Below are positions 1 to 23,404 of a stretch of 64,000 bases of DNA, in pieces (within the stretch, counting starts at the first letter, position 1; each line of letters starts with the position of its first letter). The position numbers were made by a program, and so were the translations under genes. Source of the DNA: an uncultured Gammaproteobacteria bacterium (GTDB taxonomy: Bacteria > Patescibacteriota > Patescibacteriia > Patescibacteriales > UBA12465); contig CAYYDR010000001.1 in assembly GCA_964470695.1 (NCBI GenBank), forward strand, positions 401,997 through 465,996. The letters are read 5' to 3'. Below the pieces are notes generated by a model. That model made no database searches, had not been told where the DNA came from, and saw nothing but the letters and a program-made list of their open reading frames with translations.

Positions 1-54
1 AGCAGATGCGGCGATTGTAACGAATAGCATGATAAGCAACATTGTCTTTTTCAT
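1..54 (-). CDS. N-terminus of a secreted or membrane protein; partial, continues off the left edge
   Basis: The reverse strand reads GAGGAccacATG then MKKTMLLIMLFVTIAASA, i.e. an SD-like GAGGA followed by a signal-peptide-like start. Only 18 codons are visible. Confidence 0.45.
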   Translation of the reverse strand, partial: MKKTMLLIMLFVTIAASA

Positions 55-219
55 GTGGTCCTCTTATGGGTTGATGGTTGATTTATTTTTTATTTTAAAA
101 AAGAACTTAGTTTAATAGATTATATTGCCATATATAATAAATTTTGTAAACAGTTGAAATTCTAGCCTTTAGGGCTAGAATATATCCATATTATAAGCTA
201 ACTATGTTATAATTTTATC

Positions 220-690
220 ATGCTAGATATTACCATCATCGCGGTCGGAAAATTAAAAGAAAAATATTTTCAAACTGCTTTTGCGGAATACGAAAAACGT
301 CTGCGTCCTTACGCTCGCCTTAAAGTAGTAGGGCTGCCGTCCGCGCCTTTTTCTAAATCTACTAAAGCTCAGGCTAAAAGATTTGAAGGCGAGACTATAG
401 AAAAATATTTAGTCAAGGCGGAAAAGGAAAATAATCCGGCCGTGGTTTATCTGCTGGCGGAGCGGGGCAAGATTTTTTCTTCACCGGATTTTGCGTCCTG
501 GCTGGTTAAGAAGCAGCCGCTTATATTAATAGTCGGCGGGGCTCTCGGATTCAGCGATGAGCTTTATGAAAAATATCCGCAAATTTCTTTATCGCCCCTT
601 ACTTTTCCGCACGAATTAGCGCGCGTTGTCCTTATTGAGCAGATTTATCGCGCCGCTACTATTCTTAGTAATAAAGAATATAATTATTAA
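220..690 (+). CDS. rlmH: 23S rRNA (pseudouridine1915-N3)-methyltransferase RlmH (SPOUT family)
   Basis: 156-aa ORF. 'IIAVGKLKEKY..YEKRL' and 'LILIVGGALGFS...LSPLTFPHELARVVLIEQIYRA' fit the RlmH pattern and size. Confidence 0.85.
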   Translation: MLDITIIAVGKLKEKYFQTAFAEYEKRLRPYARLKVVGLPSAPFSKSTKAQAKRFEGETIEKYLVKAEKENNPAVVYLLAERGKIFSSPDFASWLVKKQPLILIVGGALGFSDELYEKYPQISLSPLTFPHELARVVLIEQIYRAATILSNKEYNY

Positions 691-707
691 AAATATTTAT
701 TAAAAGT

Positions 708-1595
708 ATGTCCGTCGCTAAAGATAAGCCCAAGATTAAATTTAAGACTAAATCCGGGGCTAAGTCCAAGACTAGGTCTGAGACTAAATCCGAGACTAAG
801 TCAGGACCCGGGATTAATCAGTTAACTAGGGAATTATCCTCGTACGCCAATAAGCCTCAGGCCGCTATTTTACAGCGTTTTTTTAAGACTGGACCGGGCC
901 AGTATGGGGCCGGAGACCGGTTTTTAGGCCTAAAAGTGCCTCTCCAGCGTCAAATAGCTCAGAAATATAGGGAATTAGACCTAAAGGGGATTAAAACGCT
1001 TCTGGCTAGTAAAATTCACGAATTTCGTTTGGTTGGTTTGCTAATTTTAGTTGAACAATATGAAAAGGCTAAAAATTGGCCGGAAAAGAAAAAAATTGTT
1101 GATTTTTATCTAAAAAATACCAAGGGAATAAATAATTGGGACTTGGTTGATTTATCTGTTTATAAAATCTTGGGAGATTTTCTCTTGGGACAGGAAAAAG
1201 CAATAATTAAGGGGGCTAGGGCTTTATCTAAGGGGGCGGTACATATTATTAGAGAGGCTGGCGCCATATCTTTAGAGTCAAAAAAAATATTGACTAAGCT
1301 GTCTGAATCTAAAAACCTTTGGGAAAGGCGTATGGCTATGGTCGCTACTTATGCTTTTATTAAAGCTGGATATTATAAAGAAACTTTCTCTTTAGCTAAA
1401 AAACTCCTAAAAGATGAGCACGATCTTATTCATAAAGCAGTCGGCTGGATGCTAAGAGAGGCTGGTAAGAGAGTTAGCCGAGATAAGCTGCGGGAATTTT
1501 TAAATGAACACCATCGTTTGATGCCTCGGACGGCCCTGCGTTACGCCATAGAACATTTACCGGCTCCGGAGCGGGAGCACTATCTGGCTAAATAA
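708..1595 (+). CDS. DNA alkylation repair protein (AlkC/AlkD-like HEAT-repeat family) with a K/S/T-rich N-terminal tail
   Basis: 'LQRFFKTGPGQYGAGDRFLGLKVP' and 'HDLIHKAVGWMLREAGK' are typical of the DNA alkylation repair enzyme family. The N-terminus has low-complexity KSxTKS repeats. Confidence 0.7.
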   Translation: MSVAKDKPKIKFKTKSGAKSKTRSETKSETKSGPGINQLTRELSSYANKPQAAILQRFFKTGPGQYGAGDRFLGLKVPLQRQIAQKYRELDLKGIKTLLASKIHEFRLVGLLILVEQYEKAKNWPEKKKIVDFYLKNTKGINNWDLVDLSVYKILGDFLLGQEKAIIKGARALSKGAVHIIREAGAISLESKKILTKLSESKNLWERRMAMVATYAFIKAGYYKETFSLAKKLLKDEHDLIHKAVGWMLREAGKRVSRDKLREFLNEHHRLMPRTALRYAIEHLPAPEREHYLAK

Positions 1596-1675
1596 GTCTC
1601 GGGCAGGCCGATTTTTATTGTGGTTTTTTAAGGAAGTGCTATAATATCAATTACGAATTATTAATTATTAATTTT

Positions 1676-2536
1676 ATGTCTGAAGAAAATATGAAAAAAT
1701 GTTGCGGTGGTAAATCCGGAGCTTGTTGCGAAGACAAGTCTGGAAATTGTTGTGATGATAAAACGGGCGCTTGCTGCGACCATGGTCATGGCCATAAGTT
1801 GTTTCGCTCCATCACGGTTATGCTCGGTTTAGTTCTTTTAGCGGCCATTATTATTACCGCTATTTTACGCGATCGCATTGTTAATCAGCAGTTTAAAAGT
1901 GTTACTGTCACGGGTCAGGGGAAGGTGGCTTATACACCTGATTTAGCTATTGTGACTTTAGGCGTTCAAATTGATAAAGTTTCTAAACCGGAGGATGCCT
2001 TGAATCAGCTTAATACTAAGGTAGCTAGTATAATGGAGGCTGTTAAAAAAGCGGGTATTGCTCCTGAAAATATCCAGACTCAGAATTATTCCTTGTACCC
2101 CCAGTATGATTATAAGGATAATGTTTCAACCGTCTCCGGCTATAATGCTAATGAGCAGTTAGTAATTAAAGTGGTCGGCTACGATAAAGATCAAAATAAA
2201 TTATCTCAGGTAATCGCCGCTGCCTCTAAGGCGGGCGCTAATCAGGTTAATAATTTAGCTTTTGACGCCTCTAACCTAAATGATTTAAAGCAACAGGCCC
2301 GCGTTAAAGCGATTGAAGATGCTAAGGCAAAAAGCTCGGTTTTAGCGACCACGGCTGGCGTGGAACTAAAAGATATTACTGGCTGGTACGAAAATTTTGT
2401 TAATCCGGTGCCGATGTATTCAACTGATTACGCGAGCGGTAAAGGTGGCATGGGCGCAGGAGCCGCTTCTCCCTTAACTCCTTCTGGCGACCGAGAAGTA
2501 GTAATTGAAATTGGGGTAACTTATAATATTAAATAA
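1676..2536 (+). CDS. SIMPL-domain (DUF541) single-pass membrane protein with a Cys-rich cytoplasmic N-terminus
   Basis: One TM helix (LFRSITVMLGLVLLAAIIITAIL). The C-terminal 'LAIVTLGVQ...QNYSLYPQY...NANEQLVIKV...ARVKAIEDAKAKS' is SIMPL-like. The N-terminus carries four CC pairs followed by HGHGH. Confidence 0.7.
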   Translation: MSEENMKKCCGGKSGACCEDKSGNCCDDKTGACCDHGHGHKLFRSITVMLGLVLLAAIIITAILRDRIVNQQFKSVTVTGQGKVAYTPDLAIVTLGVQIDKVSKPEDALNQLNTKVASIMEAVKKAGIAPENIQTQNYSLYPQYDYKDNVSTVSGYNANEQLVIKVVGYDKDQNKLSQVIAAASKAGANQVNNLAFDASNLNDLKQQARVKAIEDAKAKSSVLATTAGVELKDITGWYENFVNPVPMYSTDYASGKGGMGAGAASPLTPSGDREVVIEIGVTYNIK

Positions 2537-2599
2537 AATTTTAATTAAAATATAAACCAGCCGGAAATATATTTCCGGATAATATTTCAATAACTAATT

Positions 2600-5068
2600 A
2601 TGAACGGAAATGGCAATTCGGACTCTAACCGTAACCCCTTAGCAGGTAAAACGGTCTTGATAGTTAACACGTCAGGGGCTAACGACCCGCTCCATTCTAA
2701 AAAGCTTTTCGTCAAGAAAGTAAAAAATTTAGGACTAAAAATATTAATCCTTAGCAAAGAAGCTAATACTTTTCAGCCTTATGTTGATTATTGTGTTTCT
2801 GCTGACACCCTGAATTATGCTGAAGCGATGCTTACTTTGGATAATTGGCTTAAAAATAACCCCGCTATTAAGTTAGATGGGGTTGTTACTTTTTTAGAGG
2901 ACGATGTTTTGTTGACCGCCAAGATCGCTGATAAGTATAAGCTTATTAACACGCCGTATAAGGTTGCCAATCATGTTCGTAATAAATATGCTTTTCGGGA
3001 ATTCTGTGTTAATAATGGCTTGCCTACCGTCAAATTTAGAGAGTTAAAGAATAATAAGGACTTAGAAGAAGTTGCTAAGCTATTTAGTTTTCCACTCGTT
3101 GTTAAGCCGGCCTATGGCGCGGCTAGTGCTTTCGTAGTAAAGGTTAATAATGAGGAGGAACTCAGGGAGAGCTATAATTATATTAAGAAAGATATTTCGC
3201 CCAAGGTAGAATCAGCCCTTAATGATGGTCTAGATGTTTTTGTGGAAGAATATATTGACGGCGATGAGGTGGACTTAGATATATTGATTCAGAACGGAAA
3301 AATAAAATTTTGCGCGATTAGTGATAATGGCAAGACTAAAGAGCCATTTTTTATTGAAACAACCCGCATCACCCCGTCTAATTTGCCAGCTAAGAATCAG
3401 GCCGAACTTCTCGCCATGGCTGATGAAACTCTGGAGAAATTAGGGGTTTTAAACGGCTGCATTCATTTTGAGGCTAAGTCAACTCCGCGCGGTCCAGTTC
3501 CTTTAGAAATAAATTTACGCCTGGGCGGTGATGAAATATTTCCTAGCATTAAAGGCGCCTGGCATGTTGATTTAGTGGAGAATCTGCTTAAGATTGCCTG
3601 CGGTATTTATATCCCTAAATTTGATTTTCCGGACGGCCCTTATGAATATTTAATTGCCCAGACTTTTTCTTCTGATTATTCTGGTATTATTGTTAACTTA
3701 GAAATTAACGAAGATTTACGGCGTCGTCCTTATGTTAAGGAATTCCAGTTTGAAAAGAAAATAGGCGACTCAGTTTTATCGCCGCCAGATGGTTATGAAT
3801 ATCTGGGTTGGATTTTAGTATCCGGCTCTAATCCTCTTGATGCTCAAGATAATTTGCATGAAGCGGAAAAAGCGGTTAACTATGAAATTGCCAAGTTTCA
3901 TCCCGCCTCTTCTATCGGTAAAACGACTCGCCGTTCGCCCTTTTCCGTCTCGGCGATTAACCTGGATATTCTAAAGCGCGGCTCTAAGATTGAAAAAATC
4001 CGCCGCATGGCGATTTCTAATCAACGCAATCTACATGTGGGAATTGCTTGTAATTTATATGAAGAGAATGCCGCTGATCAGGAAGTCGTAGTGGAAAATG
4101 ATTTAACGGTTATTGGCAAGGATATTGAGAAGACTTTAAAAGAGCGCGGTTATAAGATTAGTTTTTTTGATTTTAATGACCTGCCTAAGGCTTTTAATGA
4201 TTTACGAAATAGCGACGTTGATTTAGTATTTAATGTCTGCGAGCGCATTAATAATTCAAGCTTGTTAGAACCGCACGTCGCCTCAATTTTAGATACGCTG
4301 CAAATTCCTTATACCGGCTCTAATCCTTTTACCCTCGGTCTTTGTATTGATAAAATTAGAGTCAAAAAATTACTCAGTTATCATAAAATTCCTACCCCAG
4401 AATGGGATTATGTCTATTCTATGGACGATGACATCCGTGATGATTTACGTTACCCGCTTATTGTTAAGCCGGCTAATACGGATAATTCTATTGGCATTAC
4501 TAATGACTCCGTCGTTCGCAATAAAGAGGAGTTAAATCGCCAGCTAGAAAAAGTCTTAAAAGAAATCGGCCGGCCAGCTCTAATTGAAGAATATATTGAT
4601 GGCGATGAATATGATGTACCGATTATCGGTTCGGAAGACGATGACTTGCGTATTCTGCCTTTAGCGCGGTCTATCTTTGATAATTTACCTGAAAACCTTT
4701 GGCATATTTATCCCTTTGAGTCTAAATATACTGATGGTGGAGAGTATAATAAAATTGTGGTCCAGCGTCCGCCTAAGAATATTAATAAAAAATTAGAAGC
4801 TCTTTTAGGCGAAATCGCGCTAGATACTTATAATATTTTAGATTGCCATGACTACGGCCGCATTGAAATCAGGGTTGATAAGAATAATAACCCCTATGTT
4901 TTGGAGCTTAACCCCAATCCGTCTTTAGACGCGGAGGGAACTTTTTCGGCTTCGGCCGAGGTTATCGGCTTGGATTACGGCGATTTTTTGGAAGAAATAA
5001 TCCGTTTAGCCATTAAGCGCTATAAGGATAATCCGCCCTATTATCATCTGCAGCCGAACGTGATGTAA
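2600..5068 (+). CDS. Fusion of two ATP-grasp ligase modules: an N-terminal L-amino-acid-ligase-like half and a C-terminal D-Ala-D-Ala-ligase-like half
   Basis: The 822-aa ORF has two separate ATP-grasp signatures: 'FPLVVKPAYGAASAFVVKV...EEYIDGDEVDLDIL...LEINLRLGGDEI' and 'YPLIVKPANTDNSIGI...EEYIDGDEYDVPIIG...YVLELNPNPSL'. Confidence 0.7.
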   Translation: MNGNGNSDSNRNPLAGKTVLIVNTSGANDPLHSKKLFVKKVKNLGLKILILSKEANTFQPYVDYCVSADTLNYAEAMLTLDNWLKNNPAIKLDGVVTFLEDDVLLTAKIADKYKLINTPYKVANHVRNKYAFREFCVNNGLPTVKFRELKNNKDLEEVAKLFSFPLVVKPAYGAASAFVVKVNNEEELRESYNYIKKDISPKVESALNDGLDVFVEEYIDGDEVDLDILIQNGKIKFCAISDNGKTKEPFFIETTRITPSNLPAKNQAELLAMADETLEKLGVLNGCIHFEAKSTPRGPVPLEINLRLGGDEIFPSIKGAWHVDLVENLLKIACGIYIPKFDFPDGPYEYLIAQTFSSDYSGIIVNLEINEDLRRRPYVKEFQFEKKIGDSVLSPPDGYEYLGWILVSGSNPLDAQDNLHEAEKAVNYEIAKFHPASSIGKTTRRSPFSVSAINLDILKRGSKIEKIRRMAISNQRNLHVGIACNLYEENAADQEVVVENDLTVIGKDIEKTLKERGYKISFFDFNDLPKAFNDLRNSDVDLVFNVCERINNSSLLEPHVASILDTLQIPYTGSNPFTLGLCIDKIRVKKLLSYHKIPTPEWDYVYSMDDDIRDDLRYPLIVKPANTDNSIGITNDSVVRNKEELNRQLEKVLKEIGRPALIEEYIDGDEYDVPIIGSEDDDLRILPLARSIFDNLPENLWHIYPFESKYTDGGEYNKIVVQRPPKNINKKLEALLGEIALDTYNILDCHDYGRIEIRVDKNNNPYVLELNPNPSLDAEGTFSASAEVIGLDYGDFLEEIIRLAIKRYKDNPPYYHLQPNVM

Positions 5069-5071
5069 TTT

Positions 5072-6001
5072 ATGATAGAGATTAGAGAAACAACCGACTT
5101 AAAAGAGGCGGAAAAGTTATGGCGTTCTTTATCGCCTCATAAGACTATTTTTGACGAATGGGACTGGCGTTATTGTTTTTATAAATACAATCCTCATCCT
5201 TTAAGATTTATGGCTGCCTATGAGACGGGTGGCGGTAAGGGGGCGGGTGGAGATAAAGCAGAATTGGTTGGTCTTTTGCCTTTAGCGCGCCATCCTAAAT
5301 ATGGCTTAGAGTTTTTGGCCGAAGATCCTTGTGAAGAGAACCGTTTATTTATCAAACCAGGGCGAGAGGATGTTATTCCTATTTTATACGAAGCAGTTGA
5401 TGAGCCGGCCAAATGTTATGATATAACCGGTGACGATGAGTTTACTAGAAACTTACCGTTAGAAGACTATAAATATATTCTTCCTTTGCAGGGGATAAAT
5501 TCTTTTTCAGATTTTTTAAATAGCCGTTTATCATCTAAGCGCCGCCGTTCGCTAGCTAAAGAATTAGAGGAATTAGAGAAGATTTCTCCAGAATCTTTAC
5601 TGGTAGATAAGGGGCAGTGGCCGGAGTATTTAGAATTATTGTTTCGTTTCAATACGGATAACTTCGCCGGCGAGTCTTATTTAATTGAGAATGAACAGGC
5701 CGCTTGGCGAGATTTACTCAAGCTGTCTTTTAATTGGCGCTTTATAGCCGTCAAAATAAAAAGCGAAGTTCAGGCGGTATCATTAAGTGTTTTTTATAAA
5801 GGAGAGTGGCATTATTTAATTACGGGGGTGAATTTTAAGGATTGGCCGGGGCTAGGGAAATATTTAGTTAAAGTAAATATAGAAGCGGCTATTTTGGCTC
5901 AGGCAGAAATATTTGATGCTGGCTTGGGTGACTGCGGCTGGAAGCATCTTTGGCATTTTGATAGAATTCCGCAGCATGAGTTTAGAAAATTAGTTGATTA
6001 A
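5072..6001 (+). CDS. FemAB/CelD-like GNAT acyltransferase (Acetyltransf_6-like)
   Basis: The start lies 3 nt after the ATP-grasp stop. 'SKRRRSLAKELEELEK' and the C-terminal 'FDAGLGDCGWKHLW' resemble the CelD/BioF2-like GNAT family. Confidence 0.55.
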   Translation: MIEIRETTDLKEAEKLWRSLSPHKTIFDEWDWRYCFYKYNPHPLRFMAAYETGGGKGAGGDKAELVGLLPLARHPKYGLEFLAEDPCEENRLFIKPGREDVIPILYEAVDEPAKCYDITGDDEFTRNLPLEDYKYILPLQGINSFSDFLNSRLSSKRRRSLAKELEELEKISPESLLVDKGQWPEYLELLFRFNTDNFAGESYLIENEQAAWRDLLKLSFNWRFIAVKIKSEVQAVSLSVFYKGEWHYLITGVNFKDWPGLGKYLVKVNIEAAILAQAEIFDAGLGDCGWKHLWHFDRIPQHEFRKLVD

Positions 6002-6761
6002 TAATTTTAAAACTATGTTTCTGATATCGGATGAATATTATCAAATTAAAACTACTAATAAAAAGGGCCGGGGAGTTTTTGCTAGGCGGGAAATTTCGGC
6101 CGGCACTATCATCGGCGATTATTTAGGATTGGTAATTAAAGATGAAGAAATAGACGGTAAAGAGAAAAAACATGGCAACTCTTGCTATGCTATGGATTAT
6201 AATGATAATGGTTTGTCTATTTTTCCGGCTGATGTGAAAGCGGTTGGTATCCATCTCATTAACCATTCTTGTTCGCCTAACTGTGACGCCTATTTTTATT
6301 ATGGCCATACCTTATATTTTGCTTTGCGTCGTATTTGGCCGGGTGAAGAAATAACAGTTGATTACGGATTTGATGCGGAGGGAAGTCAGGACAAAGAATT
6401 GCTTCATCCTTGTTTTTGCGGCAGTCCATTTTGTCGCGGCACTATGTATACTAATGAGGCGAGACTTAAGCTTTACGGTCGGTTCTGTCGTCAGGAAACT
6501 AAGGGTCAAAAGTTTAAAGCATTATCCGCTGGTCAGATACTGCCTCCTTTAAGTAAATATCCGAGAGTCATAAAAGATAATAATATTTTTAATTTATTCG
6601 CGAATTTAGAAAAAAAATCAGTAAGCTATAACGATAGTAGAATGCCCTCGTTATCAGAATTAAGAAAGCGTTTACGTTCTAGCGGTCGCCCCTTAAGTTT
6701 TAAGAGGTTAGGGGTAAGTATTTTAGCTATAATAGACGGCCGTTTTGTCGCTGGAAAGTAA
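5994..6761 (+). CDS. SET-domain protein-lysine methyltransferase with a post-SET Cys cluster
   Basis: 'GRGVFARREISAGTIIGDY', 'INHSCSPNC', 'GEEITVDYGF' and 'CFCGSPFCRG' are present. It overlaps the upstream gene by 8 nt, so translational coupling is likely. Confidence 0.8.
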   Translation: MINNFKTMFLISDEYYQIKTTNKKGRGVFARREISAGTIIGDYLGLVIKDEEIDGKEKKHGNSCYAMDYNDNGLSIFPADVKAVGIHLINHSCSPNCDAYFYYGHTLYFALRRIWPGEEITVDYGFDAEGSQDKELLHPCFCGSPFCRGTMYTNEARLKLYGRFCRQETKGQKFKALSAGQILPPLSKYPRVIKDNNIFNLFANLEKKSVSYNDSRMPSLSELRKRLRSSGRPLSFKRLGVSILAIIDGRFVAGK

Positions 6762-6775
6762 AAAAGGCCGGTATA

Positions 6776-6805
6776 TTGGCATGTTTTTATTAGGTGTGCT
6801 ATAAT
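6776..6805 (+). promoter_or_regulatory. Sigma-70-type promoter: TTGGCA, 18-nt spacer, TGcTATAAT
   Basis: TTGGCA at 6776-6781 and an extended -10 TGCTATAAT at 6797-6805. It sits ~165 nt upstream of the hup ATG. Confidence 0.45.
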
Positions 6806-6969
6806 ATACTTATAAACATTGAGTAATTTAAAAAGGGCTGTGTAAAAAGCCCGCCAATATTGAATAAAAGCTTATTAATTAATTTTAATTATAAAATTAT
6901 TTTTTAAAATTGGCTTTGTTATTAAAGGATTTAATTATTCTTTATTAATAATTCCCATGCAAAAAAATT

Positions 6970-7251
6970 ATGTCAAAAATGACCAAATCACAGATGATCG
7001 CTGGCTTAGCAGAAGCAACCGGCTTAAGCAAAAAAGAGACTGGCGCTTTCATGGATCAGTTAGCGGAATTAGTTTACAAAGAAGTTAAGAAGAACGGCGA
7101 ATGCATCGTTCCTGGCTTCGGTAAATTAGTAAAGGCTAAGAGAAAGGCTCGTGAAGGCCGCAATCCAGCGACTGGCGAAACCATTAAGATACCGGCTAAG
7201 ACAGTTGTAAAATTCCGCTTAGCTAAGGCTGTTAAGGACACTGTTCTATAG
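6970..7251 (+). CDS. hup: DNA-binding protein HU
   Basis: 93 aa. 'GFGKLVKAKRKAREGRNPATGETIKIPAKTVVKFRLAKAVKD' is the canonical HU/IHF arm. Confidence 0.9.
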   Translation: MSKMTKSQMIAGLAEATGLSKKETGAFMDQLAELVYKEVKKNGECIVPGFGKLVKAKRKAREGRNPATGETIKIPAKTVVKFRLAKAVKDTVL

Positions 7252-7336
7252 TATTAGTTTGTTAGTAGTTTGTTCCATAGGCCTCGCTTCGGCTTAGTCT
7301 ATGGTATAGATTTAGGAAACAATTTCGTTTCTCAAT

Positions 7337-7371
7337 AAAAAAAACATCCTGTCGGAATCCAGGGTGTTTTT
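7337..7371. terminator. Bidirectional intrinsic terminator between hup (+) and the HTH gene (-)
   Basis: A 9-bp stem AACATCCTG/CAGGGTGTT is flanked by an A-run and a T-run. Confidence 0.6.
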
Positions 7372-7665
7372 TTATTTCCATTCTTTGACATATTGGCCGA
7401 GGCCGAAGTCCTTAAGCTTATTATAAAGTTTAGTATTCTTATTTAGGAAGGATAGAAGGGAGCCTAGTTCTATTTGGTAGCGATTCTTGACTATTTTATA
7501 TTTAAGGTTAGGGTCGGATTTTATAGCCCGGCGTATAGTCTTCCCGGTAATTCCGCCTAAGCCAGCCGCCTCAGAAACAGAAAGCCAGATAGGGGACTTA
7601 ACCTCAATAGTGGTTTTTAAGTTAAAGTCTAGCGGTTTGATTATTTGGGTATCTTTTTCTTGCAT
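7372..7665 (-). CDS. Small helix-turn-helix DNA-binding protein (excisionase/MerR-like HTH)
   Basis: 'WLSVSEAAGLGGITGKTIRRAIKS' is an HTH. A minus-strand TATAAT (7679-7674) lies only 8 nt before the ATG, so the mRNA is near-leaderless. Confidence 0.6.
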   Translation of the reverse strand: MQEKDTQIIKPLDFNLKTTIEVKSPIWLSVSEAAGLGGITGKTIRRAIKSDPNLKYKIVKNRYQIELGSLLSFLNKNTKLYNKLKDFGLGQYVKEWK

Positions 7666-7685
7666 TTAGGTAAATTATAGTATTT

Positions 7686-7874
7686 AAGTCTAATATATTG
7701 TAGACTTATATAATAAAATTAGCTAATAAAAAAGTAAAATTATACTTAAGTCTAATTTAATATAGACTTAAATCTATATAATAAAAGTAAAAATGTCAAA
7801 TAATCTATGTTTAAAGATTAGGTCAGCCCTAACTAAAAATAATTTTTTAGTTAAGTCCAAATATGGATAGACTT
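7686..7874. promoter_or_regulatory. Array of three palindromic operator-like sites, AAGTCYA-N8-TAGACTT
   Basis: AAGTCTA-N8-TAGACTT occurs at 7686-7707 and 7748-7769, and AAGTCCA-N8-TAGACTT at 7853-7874. The last site abuts an extra half-site (AAGTCTT, 7875-7881). Confidence 0.6.
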
Positions 7875-8202
7875 AAGTCTTAATATATTAGTCCTTTCTA
7901 TTTAAAAGTCAAGGATTTATAAAATATTTATTAGGGTTCGTTTAGAAGAAAAATAGATCTGAATTAATAAGAAATAGGGGCCGGGTTTAAAGATAAATAA
8001 GGCAAGAAATAATGCTGGTTGGCGTACTATATTATGTTGCTTTTCAATATTTATTGTGTTAATATATTTATAATAATTGAAAGATAATTTTGGGGTGGCG
8101 GGCCGATGATTTCCCGTTATTTTTTGTTAAGATGAGTTAACGCTTTTTTAGTGTATAGAAATTGGTTGTTTAGCAAATTAATGTAATTGATTATTCAAGA
8201 AA

Positions 8203-8793
8203 ATGCCTAGTTTAGTCCAAAAATTTAAAGATAAGCAAGCTCTTAGCCGCCTTAAAAGCCGCGATAAAGAGGCTTTTATTGCTGTTTATGATGCCCATGT
8301 TAAGGATATTCATCGTTTTGTTTATTTTAAAATAGGGAACAAGGAGGAGGCTAATGATCTAACCTCAATGATATTTTTAAAGGCCTGGAATCATATTCAA
8401 AATAAGACTTTAGAGGATGCTAAAACTTTGCGCGCTTTACTTTATAAAATTGCCAGAACATCCATTATTGACTATTATCGCGAGACCGGAAATAAGTTAG
8501 TTGCGTCTTTAGATGATGAGGAGAATAAGATAGAGGTTGTGGATAACACTATTAATCCCCAGGAGCGCTTAGATCAGGAGTCCGATTTAGATCTGATTAA
8601 GAGTAAGCTGCCACTATTAAAAGAAGAGTATAGGGAAGTTATAGTGATGAAGTTTATCAATGATTTGACCCTTGAAGAAATAGCTGAAATTAGCGGAAAA
8701 ACCAAGGGAAATGTCAGAGTTTTGTTGCATCGCGCCCTGAACGCTTTAAGAGAGCTAGTGGAAAAAGGTGAAGGAAAGAATCAGGAACTGTAA
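8203..8793 (+). CDS. ECF-type sigma-70 family RNA polymerase sigma factor
   Basis: Region 2 ('FIAVYDAHVKDIHRFVYFKIG..EEANDLTSMIFLKAW') and region 4 ('REVIVMKFINDLTLEEIAEISGKTKGNVRVLLHRALNALR'). Confidence 0.8.
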   Translation: MPSLVQKFKDKQALSRLKSRDKEAFIAVYDAHVKDIHRFVYFKIGNKEEANDLTSMIFLKAWNHIQNKTLEDAKTLRALLYKIARTSIIDYYRETGNKLVASLDDEENKIEVVDNTINPQERLDQESDLDLIKSKLPLLKEEYREVIVMKFINDLTLEEIAEISGKTKGNVRVLLHRALNALRELVEKGEGKNQEL

Positions 8794-8825
8794 CAATTTA
8801 GCGGATACTACGTATATTAAGGTGT

Positions 8826-9674
8826 ATGAACAATAAGGACCTTATCGGAAAATTAAATAATTTGAAAAAGATAAGCCCCGATCAAAATTGGCTTGATAGC
8901 AATCGGGAGCTTTTGTTATCCCAAATTTCTAATTCCGGAGCTGAGAATCTATCGGTTTGGAGAGCGAGCTTTATTAACTTTACTAGCGCCATGAAATCCT
9001 TATCTCAGCCGGCTTTCGCGCTGGGAGTTTTTGTTGTAATGCTGTTTTCCGGGGCCTTGTTTAGCCAGGGGCTACTCGCTTCTAGCAAGCCGAATACTTC
9101 TTTATATATTGCCCGCATCATTTCCGAGAAAGTTAAATTAAATACGACTTTTAATACCGAAGAGAGAAATAAACTAGCCGTTCAATATGCCTCTGAACAC
9201 GCCCAGGATATTAGCACTGTTTTAGCTGATCCGGCTTTTAATACTGAAGCTAACCGTGATCAGGTGGCCGCTTTAACAGATAGTTTTGAAAAAGAAGTTG
9301 ATACTGTTAAGACTCATATTAGCCGCATGCCCGTCGTCGTCAGAAAACCGGCCGTAAGCGATATTAATAATAACGATGTTGTTATCGCTGATAGTTCTAA
9401 AGATGGCCAGGGAATCCAGTTGGCCGAAAAAACCAATGTTAATATTCAGACTACTTTAGAAAATAAGGACTTCTTAGCTACTGGCGCCGCCTTAAATGAT
9501 AATGCGTCTTTAACAGCAACCTCTGCCGCTAGCTCAACTCCGAAATTAAATATTCCTGTTAAAGAAACTTCGGATGCGGAGAAGATAGTTGATGAAGCCA
9601 TAAAGTTATTTGATTCTAAAGATTATAGTAAAGCGTCTGATAAGTTAAAAGAAGTAAAAGATATAATTAAATAA
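8826..9674 (+). CDS. Putative anti-sigma factor: single-pass membrane protein downstream of the ECF sigma gene
   Basis: The call rests on position, one TM helix (AFALGVFVVMLFSGALF) and a low-complexity extracytoplasmic tail. No diagnostic motif was found. Confidence 0.4.
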   Translation: MNNKDLIGKLNNLKKISPDQNWLDSNRELLLSQISNSGAENLSVWRASFINFTSAMKSLSQPAFALGVFVVMLFSGALFSQGLLASSKPNTSLYIARIISEKVKLNTTFNTEERNKLAVQYASEHAQDISTVLADPAFNTEANRDQVAALTDSFEKEVDTVKTHISRMPVVVRKPAVSDINNNDVVIADSSKDGQGIQLAEKTNVNIQTTLENKDFLATGAALNDNASLTATSAASSTPKLNIPVKETSDAEKIVDEAIKLFDSKDYSKASDKLKEVKDIIK

Positions 9675-10151
9675 TAAAGCGCTAGCTTGTTAGTTTATCT
9701 CTGAACTCCGGTTAATCCGAGCCAAGAAGATTCGTCCTCTACTCCGGACAGCTGAGTGAGATAAATTAACAAGTTCGCGTTTTGGACTTAGTCCTAAAAC
9801 GTGGATTGGCAAACCCGTTCAATGGTCGAGCCCTGTCAAAAGGGTGGTTTGTCCCTTATAAACTTTATTCCTCTGATTCAAAGCTCTGACGGTTTATTTC
9901 TGGTAAGAAGTAAATCGGTTAAGCTTTTCTCCAGCCTTCGTGCAACACGCGCTAGGTTGGCAGAACTTATGATTTAAGGTCAGTCAGCCTTCGCCTTAAG
10001 CCTAAAAAGGGCTGGTGGAGCGGGATTCCGACTGATTTACGGCTAACCCCTAGAATATAAATCAATCAGGGCAGAGGATTAGACAACATGTCATTTTGAT
10101 CAGTTCCGACTACTATTGTCGGGACAATCAAAAATGACTTAACTATTACTT
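9675..10151 (+). other. ORF-free, GC-enriched, hairpin-rich region: a long structured 5' leader or an independent ncRNA upstream of the surface-protein gene
   Basis: No ORF >=60 aa on either strand. Stems at 9686-9701/9758-9773 (16 bp), 9778-9801 (10 bp plus a bulge) and 9808-9815/9846-9853 (8 bp). Composition is clearly richer in G+C than other spacers. Confidence 0.45.
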
Positions 10152-13100
10152 ATGAAAAAATTACGCAAGTTCTTAACTATCGGCGTAATGGTATTATCGG
10201 TAATTGCCATGAGCGGCATCGTAGTCGCTCCAGTTAATGCGGCCGCCTCTACTGGCGACTTAATTAAAATGGCTGGCAATGCTTCCGTTTACTATTTAAG
10301 TGCTGATGGTAAGAGATACGTCTTCCCTAACTCTACTACCTATTTCTCTTGGTATTCCGATTTCAGCGGCGTGGTAACCATCCCAGCTTCTGAATTACAG
10401 AGCTACCCATTGGGCGGCAATGTTACTATGAGACCAGGTACGAAGTTAGTGAAGGTTACTACTGATCCTTCTGTTTATGCCGTTGAACCTAATGGCACTC
10501 TCAGAAAGATCCAGAGTGAAGCCCAGGCGGCTGCCTTATACGGCACCAACTGGAACAAGAGAGTTGTTGATGTTCCTGATGCTTTCTTCACCAACTACAC
10601 TGTTGGCGCAGCTTTAGCTAATGGCGCTACTCCAGTTGGTTCTTTAGTAAAGACCGCTGGTTCTTCCAGTGTTTATTACTATGATGGTACTAATTACAGA
10701 ATGTTCGCTTCGGAAGCAGCTTTAACTGCTAACCGCTATGCGATGAGCGATGTTTTGACTGTTGCTTCTGTTACTGCTGGTGGTTCTTCCATCACTGGTG
10801 CGGAAACTGCTTTAGTTAAGACTTCACAGGGTGGTGTTTCTACCGGTACTGTTGTAACCGGTTCTGGTTTAATGGTTTCATTAAGCTCTAACACTGCTTC
10901 TGGCAGCACTTTAATCTACGGTCAAGCTAATGCAAATTTAGCTACCTTTAACTTCACTGCCGCTAATGACGGTGCTGTTACTGTTAAGACCTTAAAGGTT
11001 AAGAGAACTGGTGTCTCTTCAGACGCTTTGTTAACTGCCGCTTATCTGTATGAAGGTGCTAATCGTTTAACCGATAACGCCACTGTTAGTGCTAACTATA
11101 TTACCTTTAACAATGCTGCTGGTTTATTCACCGTAGCTGCTGGTCAGACCAAGAGCATTACTGTTAAATCTAACATTTCTAGTACTACTACTGATGGTGC
11201 TAACGTTGCTGTGTCTATCAATGCCGCTTCTGACGTTACCTCCACCGGCGCCGCTGTTACTGGGGCTTTCCCATTAACCGGCAACACCATGAGTGTTTCT
11301 AGCGCTACTTTAGCGACTTTCGCTTTTAACGCTACTACTAATCCGTCTGCTGCTGGCAACGTTGATGCTGGTCAGTCTGATTACACTTTATGGAAGAACG
11401 CAGTTACTATTGGTAACCGCGATATCGTTCTGTCAAGCATCCGCTTACGTCAGATCGGTTCTGTCGCTACTACTGATTTGAAAGATTTATCTTTCTATGT
11501 AGATGGCGTTAAGAAGGGCACTACCCAACAGTTGGGTACTGACGGTTATGTTACTTTTGATTTCTCTTCAAGCCCAGTTACCTTATTATCAGGTGGCCGC
11601 ACTTTAGAGTTACGTGGTAGCATCGTCGGTGGTTCTTCTAAGACCTATTCTTTCTCCTTACAGCAAGCAACTGATTTAGTCGCTGCTGATTCACAATACA
11701 ATGCTTACGTTACTGCCACTGCAGTTCCGGCTACTACCGGCACTCAGACTGTTAACGCTGGCACTTTGACTGTTACTAAGCTTTCTGACTCTCCATCTGG
11801 AAACATCACTAAAGATGCTTCTGGTGTTACCTTAGGTAAATATGAGTTCAAGGCTTATGGTGAAAGCATGAAGGTTGAATATTTAACTGCTGGTTATACA
11901 TCTAATGATGCTACTATCGGTAAGTTAAGAAATGGTGCTTTGTATGCTAACGGCGTCCAGATCGGCTCTACTGCTGATTTAGTTAAGGATGCTGGCGGCA
12001 CTACTTACAGCTTAGGTTCATCTTTAATCATTACTCCAGGTACTCCAGTTACCGTAGAAATCAGAGCTGATATCTATGATAACGATGGTACTAACAATGT
12101 AACTGCTGGTGATACCTTTGTTGCTGACTTAATCACCTATACCAATGGTGCTCAGAGACAGTCTTCTCTTGGCTATGTTAATGTCCCATCCGCTCAGGTT
12201 ACTGGCGGTACTTTAACTGTCCAGACTGGCACTATTTCTTTAGCAGCTCAAACCACTTATGGTAATCAGAACGTTGTTGTTCCGAAGACCAATACTAAGT
12301 TGGCTGCTTTCACCTTAACTGGTAACAACATTGAAGACACTACTATCAATTCTTTTGAAGTAGCCTTCACTAGCGTTACTGGTGCTACCTTCAGCAAAGA
12401 TGACTTAAATGATGTTTATTTGAAGTATGGTTCAAAGAATTCAACTGTAAAATCTACAGTTAACGCGACTGGCAATGTCTGGTCCATTTCTGAGACCTTG
12501 GCTAAGAATGGCAACATGGTCATTGAAGTTTGGGGCAATATCGGTTCAACCGTTACTGCTACTCACTCTATGAAGACTAGCTTATTAGTATCTGGTACTA
12601 CTGTTGGCTCTTCTCAGACCGTTACTACCAATGGTAATGCGGTTTTAGATGGTCAGACTTTAACTGCTCAAACTGGCAGTATTGCTTCTTCTTTGGACGC
12701 GACTACCCCAGTTAGCAAGGTTGTAGTTGGTAATGGCGCTCAGGACTTAGGTGCTTTCCGCTTTACTACTACTAACGACAATTACACTTTGACTGAAGCT
12801 GTAGTTAAGGTTGCCGATGCTGCCGCTGCTTCTAACATCACTTCTCTTTCTTTGAAAGATGGAGCTAATGTTGTTGCAACTGCTCCAATTTCTGGCACCT
12901 CCGCTACTTTCAGCGGTTTGAGCTTACCGGTTGCTGCTAATAGCTACAAGGTATTGACTGTTGTCGGTAACTTGGGTGTTGTTGGCTTCGGTGCTGGTAA
13001 TACTGGCGCTGCTGTTACTGTTACTCTTGATTCTTTCAAGGCTAACAATTCACAGGGCACTGAGACTGCTGATGCTACTGATAGAGCTGGTAATGCCATT

Positions 13101-13682
13101 TATGTTTACAAGGCTACTCCAACTATCGCTACTCAGACTTTACCATCAACCTTACTAAGTGCTAGCACTATGACTATCGCCAAGTTATCTATCACTGGCA
13201 ATACTGATACTATTGCTTGGAAGAAGTTAACTGTTGGCGTTACTAAGACTGCTAACCCAACCATCGCTGCTTTAGCTGGCGCTAATGGTACTGGTTCTGT
13301 CACTTTATATGACGAAACCGATACTGCTATCCCAGGTACTATTGCCTTCGCTGGTTTAGTAGGTGGTGCAGCTAGTGCTAACGTTGTCTTCACTGCTACT
13401 AACGAACAGTTAGTAAGCGGCAGCAAGACCTATACCTTGAAAGCTACTATCGGTGGCGCTCCAGTTGCTGGCGACAGTGTCAGCACCACTTTAACTCGTG
13501 GTGCAGTCGCTTATGCCGCTTCTGCTGCTTACACTGGTACTGCTGATGGATATAACGGCTTCGTATGGTCTGATCAATCTGGTGATACCACCACTCCTAC
13601 TCACAGCTTAACCTCTGCTGATTGGAGCAACGATTGGTTAATCAAGAACTTACCAACCGATTCTCAGACTTTATCTAAATAA
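10152..13682 (+). CDS. Large secreted cell-surface (S-layer-like) protein with repeated beta-sandwich-like modules
   Basis: Signal peptide (MKKLRKFLTIGVMVLSVIAMSGIVVAPVNAAAS). 1176 aa, T/S/A/G/V-rich with no Cys. Recurrent module starts (LATFNFTAAN.., LGKYEFKAYG.., LAAFTLTGNN.., LGAFRFTTTN.., IAKLSITGNT..). Strongly biased T-ending codons, and a strong terminator follows. Confidence 0.65.
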   Translation: MKKLRKFLTIGVMVLSVIAMSGIVVAPVNAAASTGDLIKMAGNASVYYLSADGKRYVFPNSTTYFSWYSDFSGVVTIPASELQSYPLGGNVTMRPGTKLVKVTTDPSVYAVEPNGTLRKIQSEAQAAALYGTNWNKRVVDVPDAFFTNYTVGAALANGATPVGSLVKTAGSSSVYYYDGTNYRMFASEAALTANRYAMSDVLTVASVTAGGSSITGAETALVKTSQGGVSTGTVVTGSGLMVSLSSNTASGSTLIYGQANANLATFNFTAANDGAVTVKTLKVKRTGVSSDALLTAAYLYEGANRLTDNATVSANYITFNNAAGLFTVAAGQTKSITVKSNISSTTTDGANVAVSINAASDVTSTGAAVTGAFPLTGNTMSVSSATLATFAFNATTNPSAAGNVDAGQSDYTLWKNAVTIGNRDIVLSSIRLRQIGSVATTDLKDLSFYVDGVKKGTTQQLGTDGYVTFDFSSSPVTLLSGGRTLELRGSIVGGSSKTYSFSLQQATDLVAADSQYNAYVTATAVPATTGTQTVNAGTLTVTKLSDSPSGNITKDASGVTLGKYEFKAYGESMKVEYLTAGYTSNDATIGKLRNGALYANGVQIGSTADLVKDAGGTTYSLGSSLIITPGTPVTVEIRADIYDNDGTNNVTAGDTFVADLITYTNGAQRQSSLGYVNVPSAQVTGGTLTVQTGTISLAAQTTYGNQNVVVPKTNTKLAAFTLTGNNIEDTTINSFEVAFTSVTGATFSKDDLNDVYLKYGSKNSTVKSTVNATGNVWSISETLAKNGNMVIEVWGNIGSTVTATHSMKTSLLVSGTTVGSSQTVTTNGNAVLDGQTLTAQTGSIASSLDATTPVSKVVVGNGAQDLGAFRFTTTNDNYTLTEAVVKVADAAAASNITSLSLKDGANVVATAPISGTSATFSGLSLPVAANSYKVLTVVGNLGVVGFGAGNTGAAVTVTLDSFKANNSQGTETADATDRAGNAIYVYKATPTIATQTLPSTLLSASTMTIAKLSITGNTDTIAWKKLTVGVTKTANPTIAALAGANGTGSVTLYDETDTAIPGTIAFAGLVGGAASANVVFTATNEQLVSGSKTYTLKATIGGAPVAGDSVSTTLTRGAVAYAASAAYTGTADGYNGFVWSDQSGDTTTPTHSLTSADWSNDWLIKNLPTDSQTLSK

Positions 13683-18922: not shown

Positions 18923-18981
18923 AATTTTATATTGAGTATTCAATTTCGAGTAACTCTAATTACAGGAAATAAAAAATTATT

Positions 18982-20010: not shown

Positions 20011-20134
20011 AAAATTGCTTTTATTCCCCATAATCCTAATTACGAGCACTAGTTTAGTGCGTGTATATAGAATAATGTATAAAGGCGCCCTATCTCCGGC
20101 GCAAATAAAGAATATTTACTCTAATACTAGATAA

Positions 20135-20162
20135 AATTAGCCACCTACGGGTGGCTTTTTTC
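20135..20162 (+). terminator. Intrinsic terminator
   Basis: Stem AGCCACC/GGTGGCT followed by a T-run. Confidence 0.7.
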
Positions 20163-20197
20163 TTGCTTTTTTTTATCTTTTATTGTATTATAAAGTC

Positions 20198-20606
20198 GTT
20201 ATTAGGGTAAGCGGGCGATCGCTTTATTTTTTATTCTTAGCCTCGGTTAAGCTTAAAAATGAAGAGGAAAGTCCGGACTTCGCAATTCGCCCGGGGAAAC
20301 CTGGGTGACACGATAGTGGGTAACGCCCACCGGCTCGTTTTTCGGGTCAGGGAAAGTGCCACAGAGACAATACTAATCCTGGAATATTTAACAGGATAAA
20401 AGGTGAAAAGTAACTGGATGTCCTTCGGGGCTACCGGTTTCGGCCTCCGGCGACGGAGAGCCCGTGGTAAACCCTATCGGAAGCAAGAGCAAACTGGCGT
20501 CCTTCAAAAGGCGCCAAGACAAGTGGCTCGCTTGAGCCTATTAGTAATAATAGGCCTAGATAAATGATCGCTAGAACAGAATCCGGCTTACGGCTGCCCT
20601 AATAAC
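20198..20606 (+). ncRNA. rnpB: RNase P RNA, bacterial type A
   Basis: Conserved blocks GAGGAAAGTCCGG, GGGTAACGCCC, AGGGAAAGTGCCACAGAGA, GGTAAACCC and ACAGAATCCGGCTTA. P1 pairs GTTATTAGGG (20198-) with CCCTAATAAC (-20606), and P2 pairs GCGATCGC with GATCGCT. Confidence 0.93.
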
Positions 20607-20626
20607 ATAGCTTATCATTATTACAT

Positions 20627-22042: not shown

Positions 22043-22046
22043 AACC

Positions 22047-23159: not shown

Positions 23160-23404
23160 GGAAGAAAGCGCGTTAGCCCTGTCTTCCCATATAACATAGC
23201 TTTTTCAGAACCCGTCGGTTACAGTTGGCTTATTTATTTAGCCGCCCTCTGTTAAGACAGTACAAAATTAAGTTGAATCGTTTAATAGATAATTTTGACT
23301 GCTAACTCGGCGTCAAGCGCAATGCGGTATAACCCGGTCATCTAGCCTGCTATGCTTACCCTCATCTTAGTCCAATATATATAATTGTCAAGACCCAGCA
23401 AACT

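Follow-up and report, generated by a model that had tools for sequence, protein, structure and literature searches.

Two classes of enzyme are known for peptidoglycan cross-bridge synthesis, ATP-grasp ligases, such as the D-aspartate ligase Aslfm of Enterococcus faecium, and GNATs of the Fem type; both target the epsilon-amine of a lysine within a peptide (PMC2922099). The Xanthomonas MurD2-MurL route ligates L-Glu first and epimerises it afterwards in an ATP-dependent step, MurL acting as epimerase of the C-terminal Glu in a muramyl dipeptide (PMC5808125). For two prokaryotic SET enzymes, methylation of a native substrate has been reported in vitro: cpnSET of Chlamydia acts on Hc1 and Go1-SET of Methanosarcina on MC1-alpha, both substrates being nucleoid proteins (PMC3980110). 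Here we describe a tiny-genome Patescibacteria bacterium that carries a three-gene operon encoding a double ATP-grasp ligase, a FemX-like transferase and a SET methyltransferase; no published description of such an operon was found in the literature.

Within the 64-kb stretch of DNA analysed (the window), the operon lies on the forward strand and comprises open reading frames for the ligase (2600-5068, 822 aa), the GNAT (5072-6001, 309 aa) and the SET protein (5994 or 6015 to 6761, 255 or 248 aa according to the start chosen), followed on the same strand by the HU gene, hup (6970-7251, 93 aa; Pfam Bac_DNA_binding, E 9e-28). The domain matches of these four proteins are real and above chance, and they agree with the domain calls and operon structure of the first-pass annotation. 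That annotation had also proposed translational coupling through a 3-nt gap and an 8-nt overlap. Direct reading of the sequence (taa ttt atg) gives the 3-nt spacing between ligase and GNAT, but the overlap of GNAT and SET does not hold, as it requires a TTG start at 5994. The SET homologues all start MFL(I/L) in the family alignment and the deposited database protein of the same genome is the 248-aa form beginning at ATG 6015, so that the GNAT gene, which ends with a double stop (gat taa taa ...), is separated from SET by 13 nt, a spacing that remains operon-like. A possible candidate for the operon start is a weak promoter-like site (TTAAAA, 17-nt spacer, TATATT; 2545-2578, forward strand) that overlaps a 7-bp hairpin inside the 63-nt gap 5' of the ligase gene, a consensus-scan match rather than functional evidence.

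The 822-aa protein is, as had been proposed, composed of two distinct ATP-grasp modules, one resembling L-amino acid ligases and one resembling Ddl, with Pfam and PDB matches in agreement. The N-terminal module (aa 1-430; 2600-3889, forward strand) has the same ATP-grasp_4 (aa 163-311, E 2e-30) and LAL_C2 (aa 356-430, E 1.5e-12) architecture as the L-amino acid ligases BacD/YwfE, BL00235 and RizA, and in a PDB sequence search is closest to BL00235 (3vot, E 4e-29), with BacD and 4wd3 also matched. It differs from these enzymes in that it shares only about 25-30% identity with them and is fused to a second ligase module, and the fusion is conserved in a housekeeping-like manner outside any antibiotic cluster. 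Residues K169 and E217 and the motif E303-x-N-x-R307-x-GG are kept throughout the fusion family. A conserved linker (aa 431-505; 3890-4114, forward strand), with the pattern SSIGKT.R...KIEKIRR in an alignment (A2) of seven fusions of 51-79% identity, leads into the C-terminal Ddl-like module (aa 506-822; 4115-5068, forward strand), which matches Pfam Dala_Dala_lig_C (aa 609-801, E 6e-38) and is closest in the PDB sequence search to Ddl (3r23, E 1e-25).

This second module has the fold of the Ddl and VanA family and retains the residues of E. coli DdlB for ATP, Mg and catalysis (K97, K144, E180, K215, R255, E270 and N272); the N-terminal module likewise keeps its catalytic residues. However, the Ddl substrate residues are replaced: four positions of the D-Ala site are altered relative to DdlB (H63E, S150N, S281G and L282T), the N-terminal GGxSxExEVS motif is absent in the residue comparison, and the module scores 195.8 bits against the NCBIfam Ddl subfamily, under the cutoff of 243. 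One fusion locus (L153) has a canonical Ddl alongside the fusion. The module is predicted to be a Ddl-like ligase other than a D-Ala-D-Ala ligase. GshF likewise carries two consecutive ligase modules in one chain, the C-terminal one a Ddl-like ATP-grasp, and serves as a model for tripeptide synthesis by a fusion, although the N-terminal module of GshF is a gamma-glutamylcysteine ligase and that of the fusion an ATP-grasp L-amino-acid ligase. The fusion family has at least 705 clusters, and all the taxon-named ones are from Patescibacteria; the protein is nearly ubiquitous in the clade and is the conserved core of the system.

The second gene (5072-6001, forward strand) codes for a tandem GNAT of the Acetyltransf_6 / FemX-like type, in keeping with its earlier description as CelD/FemAB-like. 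It matches Pfam Acetyltransf_6 (E 2e-7) and gives no match to Pfam FemAB. Its AlphaFold model (pLDDT 93) best matches Weissella FemX in the PDB (1xf8, E 9e-12, TM 0.60), with further fold matches to the aminoacyl-tRNA-dependent peptide synthases Sbb17/Sba18, S. aureus FemX and the C-terminal domain of MprF, and on the strength of this modelled fold we predict an aminoacyl-tRNA-dependent aminoacyl transferase. The family is small, with 121 clusters, all from Patescibacteria where named. The operon thus resembles the Fem cross-bridge machinery of Weissella (FemX) and S. aureus (FemXAB), together with Aslfm, in having an ATP-grasp amide ligase and a tandem-GNAT aminoacyl-tRNA-dependent transferase, with FemX the best structural match of the GNAT. 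It differs in the Pfam class of the transferase, in the two-module ligase, in the lack of linkage between the fusion and mur, fem or lipid II genes, and in the inclusion of a SET methyltransferase, for which we know of no parallel in cell-wall biosynthesis.

Two ATP-grasp ligases and a GNAT are also the content of microviridin clusters, a superficial likeness that could suggest a graspetide/microviridin-type RiPP cluster, with two ATP-grasp macrocyclases and a GNAT acting on a ribosomal precursor. We regard this as extremely improbable. There is no conserved small ORF beside the fusion in distant loci and none in the window, and the absence of a precursor is strong evidence against a RiPP. Moreover, the ATP-grasp modules are of LAL and Ddl type, unlike graspetide ligases, the GNAT has a FemX-type tandem fold and is no small N-acetyltransferase, and the core enzyme is extremely conserved as well as nearly ubiquitous in its clade.

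The third protein is a bona fide SET enzyme with an intact post-SET Cys (Zn) cluster, as the first-pass annotation had recognised. The SET and post-SET domains (aa 1-146 of 248; 6015-6452, forward strand) match Pfam SET at E 1e-19 (71 bits against a cutoff of 22), and the motifs GRG, NHSCSPNC, EITVDY and CFCGSPFC are invariant family-wide, including G18/G20, N83-H84-S85-C86, N89, Y117 and the Zn ligands C86, C133, C135 and C140. The model (pLDDT 92) matches the SET domains of MLL1, SETD2 and ASH1L in Foldseek (E 2e-11, 30-35% identity). The remainder (aa 147-248 and the stop codon; 6453-6761, forward strand) is a family-specific alpha/beta domain that is modelled confidently (pLDDT 88-98), has no PDB match in Foldseek, and is confined to this SET family or to free-standing proteins about 105 aa long (70 representatives). 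Like cpnSET and Go1-SET this is a small, stand-alone prokaryotic SET protein; however, its family combines the post-SET Zn cluster with a unique C-terminal domain of 100 aa, and is genomically tied to peptide ligases, not to nucleoid proteins.

That tie, like its limits, is directly visible in gene neighbourhoods. Of 23 SET lineages, 10 have an ATP-grasp gene within three genes of SET and 9 have an Acetyltransf_6 gene there, compared with 3/825 and 0/825 among background genes at least five positions away. The ATP-grasps concerned are of three non-orthologous types (the LAL-Ddl fusion, a PurD-like enzyme and single Ddl-like enzymes), and the gene order around them is rearranged between lineages. 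These observations support the earlier suggestion that SET, ATP-grasp and FemAB-like GNAT form a functional module. An opposing view is that SET works independently on a protein of its own and has merely been inserted into a peptide operon or shares its transcript; compact CPR genomes commonly carry hitch-hiking accessory genes, about half of the SET-A loci have no nearby ligase, and most fusion loci, including nine of the close clade, have no SET. This distribution means that SET may have an independent protein substrate. However, adjacency to ATP-grasp and FemX-like genes occurs in at least five independent arrangements involving non-orthologous ligases, about 20-fold or more over background, and up to three SET families (A, B and C) cluster with these ligases, which is hard to explain without a shared function, and full independence is quite unlikely. 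Peptidoglycan-related neighbours of SET are few (MreC-PBP2 at L022 and L030, a lytic transglycosylase at L020, L055 and L080, and MltG at L053, L056 and L061) and could be there by chance.

Loci centred on the fusion, dereplicated at 75% identity to 40 lineages and scored within three genes, most often contain a MurL-like protein, X456 (11 lineages), an Acetyltransf_6 GNAT (10) and SET (6), followed by an extra ATP-grasp and a DAP/Orn decarboxylase (4 each), an L-Ala-D/L-Glu-epimerase-like protein (3) and a KamA-like protein (2). HU was counted in only two, both from one synteny block. A Pfam census covering 42 distant lineages and the two genes that flank the fusion on each side is likewise headed by Acetyltransf_6, SET and Orn/DAP decarboxylase, with no Mur ligase, transporter or lipid-carrier gene consistently linked. 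The MurL-like, epimerase-like, decarboxylase, KamA-like and extra ATP-grasp partners all have free amino acids or short peptides as substrates, in small-peptide, peptidoglycan-type chemistry. The commonest of them recalls the MurD2-MurL route, in which L-amino acids are ligated first and the peptide epimerised after (PMC5808125), but X456 is only remotely homologous to MurL (it scores 39 bits where the family cutoff is 700), is missing from the window, and accompanies ATP-grasp rather than Mur-type ligases. Genes for the epimerase, decarboxylase and aminomutase partners do not adjoin the operon in the clade to which the window belongs, and the 64 kb contain none of them. Within the synteny block shared by the close clade the C module of the fusion is 93-95% identical, HU 83-91%, SET 56-70% and GNAT 40-63%; the fusion is more conserved than HU, and GNAT and SET come and go between loci, a pattern of constrained core and replaceable tailoring genes.

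We therefore favour, at somewhat better than even confidence, a pathway that assembles and tailors, independently of the ribosome, either a short peptide or the peptide part of a cell-envelope precursor. Small-peptide or cell-wall-bridge synthesis had been the first-pass annotation's secondary suggestion, and it fits the FemX-type GNAT fold and the amino-acid- and peptide-acting partners better than its preferred target, HU. In the scheme that we infer, in its catalytic steps and their order as in its substrate and product, the 822-aa core enzyme would perform two ATP-dependent amide-bond formations, its LAL-type module joining two amino acids and its Ddl-like module adding another residue or an amine by way of an acyl-phosphate intermediate. 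The FemX-fold GNAT would move an amino acid from aminoacyl-tRNA onto a free amine of the product, and SET, a dispensable accessory, might N-methylate a lysine-type amine in the same peptide context. The epimerases, decarboxylases, aminomutase and ATP-grasps found with the fusion elsewhere suggest that the products probably contain D- or non-proteinogenic residues, like peptidoglycan stem peptides and cross-bridges or glutathione-like peptides. The product is possibly cell-wall-related.

Protein-modifying members exist in all three superfamilies, and the operon could act on a protein other than HU, such as a ribosomal protein, translation factor or envelope protein, through RimK/LysX/TTL-like addition of residues to a carboxylate, L/F-transferase-like aminoacylation of an amine by the GNAT, and lysine methylation by SET. 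To our knowledge SET enzymes are exclusively protein methyltransferases, with no known non-protein substrate; the C module gives weak Pfam matches to RimK (30 bits) and TTL; SET-A is widespread without ligases, as expected for a universal protein substrate; and the KamA/EpmB-like gene adjoining the fusion in L145 and L146 recalls EF-P beta-lysylation. However, both ligase modules best match free-amino-acid ligases (LAL and Ddl) over RimK, LysX or TTL, and the recurrent partners work on free amino acids and short peptides. The fusion is not accompanied across lineages by any conserved small ORF, carrier protein or candidate target gene, and SET-only loci have miscellaneous small genes as neighbours, with no ribosomal or nucleoid protein genes among them. 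The known set of RimK, RimI, RimJ, RimL and PrmA combines the same three chemistries, ATP-grasp ligation, GNAT transfer and methylation, but each enzyme here comes from a different subfamily, with LAL/Ddl in place of RimK, a FemX-type GNAT in place of a RimI-type one and SET in place of a class I methyltransferase, and no ribosomal protein genes are linked. We consider a non-HU protein target unlikely.

The proposal that the operon modifies the neighbouring HU by ligation, aminoacylation or acylation, and lysine methylation has in its favour the position of hup, the full protein-lysine-methyltransferase architecture of SET, and the nucleoid-protein precedents of cpnSET and Go1-SET (PMC3980110). 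A survey of gene neighbourhoods confines the linkage of hup with SET, ATP-grasp and GNAT to one closely related clade in which the whole RlmH-AlkD-SIMPL-AG-GNAT-SET-HU-HTH-sigma block is syntenic, and within that clade HU still adjoins AG-GNAT in nine loci without any SET (L086, L088, L089, L094, L097, L099, L100, L104 and L152). HU was near SET in none of about 55 distant SET loci and near the fusion in none of about 33 distant lineages selected on the fusion, and is not among the 25 commonest neighbour families of the 42-lineage Pfam census. The HU of the window has no acidic or unusual tail of the kind that would suggest tailing by an ATP-grasp enzyme. HU as the target is thus unsupported, and we judge it very unlikely. 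As had been noted, hup lies 208 nt downstream of SET with its own predicted promoter, a strong sigma-70-like one by consensus scan (TTGGCA, 18-nt spacer, TG-extended TATAAT; 6776-6805, forward strand), and most likely it is a separately transcribed neighbour, its position reflecting only local gene order. This promoter is near-consensus, matching 11 of 12 positions with a TG-extended -10, and lies directly 3' of a weak terminator-like hairpin.

The operon lies between window positions 2600 and 7251, where four ORFs are read from the same strand: the double ATP-grasp ligase fusion (2600–5068, 822 aa, two ATP-grasp modules), an Acetyltransf_6 GNAT (5072–6001) that follows after a gap of 3 nt, the SET-domain methyltransferase, and hup (6970–7251), which encodes HU and is the fourth ORF. 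Comparison of the ORFs with Pfam and the PDB bears out the gene content and operon described in the first-pass annotation, apart from the start codon of the SET gene. The 8-nt overlap proposed there between the GNAT and SET genes needs a TTG start at 5994, yet every homologue starts at the equivalent of ATG 6015 (MFLI...), and the SET protein deposited for the window's genome is the 248-aa form that begins at the same ATG; this leaves a true gap of 13 nt between GNAT and SET, following a double stop. A near-consensus hup promoter with an extended −10 is present at 6776–6805, and a search for riboswitches and non-coding RNAs around the operon (positions 1–10,200) gave no Rfam match at E ≤ 0.1. 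The interval separating hup from the convergent HTH_17 gene (7372–7665, minus strand) holds a hairpin of 14 bp with A- and T-runs on its flanks (7338–7373), and this hairpin looks like a bidirectional terminator.

The position of hup 208 nt downstream of the SET gene had suggested that HU is the target of modification. We compared the surroundings of SET homologues at 80 genome loci and of fusion homologues at 80 metagenome loci (locus numbers prefixed L), and HU adjoins the operon solely in a clade sharing the syntenic block RlmH-AlkD-SIMPL-fusion-GNAT-(SET)-HU-HTH-sigma. Within this clade, tblastn showed that the fusion-GNAT-HU arrangement persists without any SET gene at nine loci (L086, L088, L089, L094, L097, L099, L100, L104, and L152), and the GNAT gene is missing from two (L004 and L012). 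Outside the close clade no HU gene was found near SET or fusion genes in the loci compared. Linkage of the SET, ligase, and GNAT genes to hup is thus not conserved in related genomes, being limited to one synteny group and independent of SET even there, and HU as the modification target is rejected on comparative gene-neighbourhood grounds; an attractive yet unsupported idea is thereby removed. Loci containing SET but neither partner offer no ribosomal or nucleoid protein as a substrate clue, and the neighbours there are miscellaneous (glyoxalase, DUF2277, DUF1801, YGGT, LapA, NUDIX, and transglycosylase).

Linkage of the SET gene to ATP-grasp and GNAT genes fared better, recurring beyond the close clade with SET as an accessory. 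The 248-aa family to which the window's SET protein belongs (SET-A) is found beside the fusion in rearranged gene orders (L022, L025/L036, L026, L040, and L057), beside an Acetyltransf_6 GNAT (GNAT6) alone (L033 and L054), beside single Ddl-like ATP-grasps (L073 and L041), and beside a PurD-like ATP-grasp together with another Acetyltransf_6 protein and, in some cases, a class I methyltransferase (L042, L043, L045, L046, L052, L053, L056, and L061). When SET-A loci are grouped at 55% identity, an ATP-grasp gene lies within three genes of SET-A in ten of 23 groups and GNAT6 in nine, with both present in six; among background genes at least five positions away, the corresponding counts are 3/825 for ATP-grasp and 0/825 for GNAT6. 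SET is missing from most fusion loci. The PurD/GARS-like ATP-grasp is about 450 aa long, its Acetyltransf_6 companion is a second family, and the class I methyltransferase is often alongside; three of these loci continue with MltG and MnmA. Lineages carrying the PurD-type clusters are commonly regarded as lacking purine synthesis. In two Gribaldobacteria loci (L022:4826–9113 and L030:3742–7916), mreC, an mreD-like gene, and a PBP2-type transpeptidase gene are followed directly by SET-A, and a lytic transglycosylase gene adjoins SET in L020/L055/L080. These wall connections (MreC-PBP2, lytic transglycosylase, and MltG) are weak hints that could be due to chance.

Several lines of evidence predict that the SET protein is a member of the SET-domain lysine methyltransferase family (PF00856). 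It matches the complete profile (71.4 bits against a cutoff of 22.4, E = 1e-19, positions 1–105 of 105), and contains the GxG, NHSxxPN (here NHSCxPN), and ELxxDY motifs, the last including the catalytic tyrosine. Across 28 diverse homologues G18, G20, N83, H84, S85, N89, E111, and Y117 are invariant or nearly so, as well as the four cysteines of the post-SET zinc cluster (CxCxxxxC together with the Cys of NHSC; C86, C133, C135, and C140), which are invariant. The AlphaFold model (pLDDT 92) superposes through residues 1–146 on the SET/post-SET domains of MLL1, SETD2, and ASH1L, and Foldseek retrieves MLL1, MLL2, SETD2, and ASH1L at E values of about 1e-11 over about 146 residues. Residues 147–248 form an extra, confidently modelled domain with no match in a PDB fold search; it is found in no other architecture, and outside this family it is seen solely as stand-alone proteins about 105 aa long. 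Related loci contain up to three SET families, A (248 aa), B (about 180 aa, with post-SET), and C (about 140 aa, without post-SET), and certain loci hold two or three SET genes. SET-B and SET-C cluster with the same ligases, both in the GNAT-SET interval (L001–L005, L009, L010, and L013) and at L022, L033, L042, L046, and L054.

The two halves of the fusion have distinct affinities. The N half matches ATP-grasp_4 and LAL_C2, a Pfam domain typical of L-amino acid ligases, and its nearest solved structures are BL00235 (3vot, E = 4e-29) and BacD (E = 1e-13); judged by family membership only, it may ligate free L-amino acids to dipeptides. The C half matches Dala_Dala_lig_C and its nearest structures are Ddl enzymes (3r23, E = 1e-25), and a housekeeping D-Ala-D-Ala ligase was considered as its identity. 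The ATP, magnesium, and catalytic residues of DdlB are retained. However, the best NCBIfam Ddl models score below their cutoffs (195.8 against 243, and 162.3 against 245.65), Pfam Dala_Dala_lig_N is undetected in the fusion, the N-terminal GGxSxExEVS motif of Ddl is missing from the C half, and the D-Ala-site residues are altered (H63E, S150N, S281G, and L282T, with approximate residue numbering). Moreover, locus L153 encodes, beside a fusion gene, a canonical Ddl with 39% full-length identity to DdlB. A housekeeping role is unlikely given the changed substrate residues, the scores below family cutoffs, and this coexistence, and by its sequence the C half is a ligase but not a Ddl. RimK is not the best family match either, scoring 30 bits over the same region against 131 bits for Dala_Dala_lig_C; no single domain of the RimK match passes alone, and no rimK model is among the best 25 of 65 NCBIfam matches to the fusion.

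Within the close clade, identity to the window's copy is 93–95% for the fusion C half, about 83% for its N half, 83–91% for HU, 73–82% for the sigma factor, 56–70% for SET, and 40–63% for the GNAT, and the fusion ranks as the most conserved gene of the block and among the most conserved proteins of its neighbourhood. Clustering the fusion family at 90% identity gives 705 clusters or more, all of those with a taxon name being from the Patescibacteria, and its members are annotated just as ATP-grasp protein or D-Ala-D-Ala ligase. The fusion is widespread in a phylum of minimal genomes and probably makes something important.

The GNAT was recognized through its fold. A sequence-profile search of the PDB returned spurious geminin matches alone, and an NCBIfam search gave zero matches; Acetyltransf_6 (PF13480) is its sole Pfam match, FemAB (PF02388) is not matched, and some homologues additionally match FemAB_like (PF04339). 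The model (pLDDT 93) has a tandem-GNAT fold, and all ten of its best PDB fold matches are aminoacyl-tRNA-dependent transferases, including Weissella FemX (E = 9e-12, TM 0.60), Sbb17/Sba18, and Staphylococcus aureus FemX, with the MprF C-terminal domain ranking just below these ten. The protein is FemX-like by modelled fold, yet Acetyltransf_6 by sequence. W290-K291 near the C-terminus is invariant and may correspond to the catalytic Phe-Lys of FemX.

To gain insight into the fusion's partners elsewhere, its loci were dereplicated at 75% identity to 40 lineages and neighbours within three genes were counted. The commonest is a family of about 456 aa with no Pfam domain, X456 (11/40 lineages), followed by GNAT6 (10), SET (6), an extra ATP-grasp (4), a DAP/Orn-type PLP decarboxylase (4), an L-Ala-D/L-Glu-epimerase-like enolase (3), a KamA-like aminomutase (2), and a DegT-like protein (2); HU is found in two, both from one synteny block. 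X456 (L132:10436–11812 and 13 other loci) contains FGKES (PP-loop-like) and WCxxCxKC motifs, and nine of 12 members match NF041275 (best E = 3e-10, profile positions 133–443 of 447); with a score far under the family cutoff, it is a putative remote homologue of MurL, a peptide epimerase (PMC5808125). In 42 distant lineages, Pfam families were also counted for the two flanking genes in each direction, and Acetyltransf_6, SET, and the Orn/DAP decarboxylase again lead. An aminoacyl-tRNA synthetase gene adjoins the fusion in six of the 42, which a rough, uncomputed estimate puts at about double the expectation, a difference that is not significant. We also considered a graspetide/microviridin RiPP cluster, but no conserved small ORF (25–75 aa), carrier or precursor, was found within 3 kb of the fusion across the distant loci, where the recurring small clusters are GIY-YIG, toxin-like, and similar genes, and the ligases are LAL- and Ddl-type; this candidate was therefore rejected.

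All recurrent partners of the fusion have free amino acids or short peptides as substrates, and for several of them the characterised relatives (Ddl, FemX, MurL, L-Ala-D/L-Glu epimerase, and LysA-type decarboxylases) belong to peptidoglycan-peptide chemistry. ATP-grasp ligases and Fem-type GNATs are the two known routes to cell-wall cross-bridges (PMC2922099). With this precedent and these partners, the operon is therefore best read as a system for ribosome-independent peptide assembly, and it would belong with the ATP-grasp/Fem-type peptide-ligase systems. The fusion would perform two ATP-grasp ligations, the GNAT would make one aminoacyl-tRNA-dependent addition, and SET would optionally N-methylate, giving a product that is a cell-envelope peptide or, alternatively, a soluble one akin to glutathione. 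Against peptide assembly, the epimerase and decarboxylase partners are missing from the window's own clade, neither Mur nor transport genes are linked within two genes on each side of the fusion in the 42 distant lineages, none of the SET enzymes is known to have a non-protein substrate, and SET and fusion are often found apart. It is a tentative and rather unlikely proposal that the SET enzymes of Patescibacteria tailor a ribosome-independent, ligase/FemX-made peptide or peptidoglycan-like precursor, methylating a lysine-type amine there and not in protein. If true, this would be the first non-protein role of a SET enzyme, and would link the origin of SET lysine methylation in bacteria to the chemistry of peptides or the cell wall.

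All parts of the operon are known superfamilies. What appears undescribed is the LAL-Ddl-like fusion, its MurL-like partner, and the way in which SET has repeatedly been recruited to ATP-grasp/FemX-like clusters in Patescibacteria; the full-text literature yielded no paper joining SET with ATP-grasp and GNAT, nor SET with Patescibacteria. The native functions of bacterial SET proteins are largely unknown beyond secreted effectors and two nucleoid-protein cases assayed in vitro, and many Patescibacteria, in which between one and three SET genes accompany ATP-grasp ligases and FemX-like transferases, provide a concrete context. A product that proved to be a cell-wall peptide or a metabolite resembling glutathione would close a gap in CPR physiology.

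Several other features of the window were observed. The SIMPL/DUF541 protein encoded directly upstream of the fusion (1676–2536) has a Cys-rich N-terminus (KKCCGGKSGACCEDKSGNCCDDKTGACCDHGHGH) followed by a hydrophobic, membrane-helix-like stretch, and SIMPL genes adjoin the fusion again at distant loci (L100, L138, and L140). A 1176-aa Ser/Thr/Ala/Gly-rich protein (10152–13682) with a signal-like N-terminus and no Pfam match is probably a surface protein, and is kept downstream of a sigma/anti-sigma-like pair in close relatives. Surface-polysaccharide genes at 16631–24607 and 41676–43145 encode a Wzy_C/TPR protein, a Bac_transf priming transferase, two GT4 glycosyltransferases, and a Polysacc_synt flippase. 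The segment 50000–58400, with a GC content of 27–32% compared to about 40% elsewhere, is probably a defence or mobile island, and contains genes for an N6_N4 DNA methylase (52018–52878), a DndB-like protein (53424–54512), a class I methyltransferase (55378–56040), and Ham1 (56095–56697). Lastly, many MAG records titled 'uncultured Gammaproteobacteria bacterium' (L002, L007, L014, L020, and others) are syntenic with and 60–95% identical to Patescibacteria/Falkowbacteria loci, and their titles look like taxonomic mislabels.
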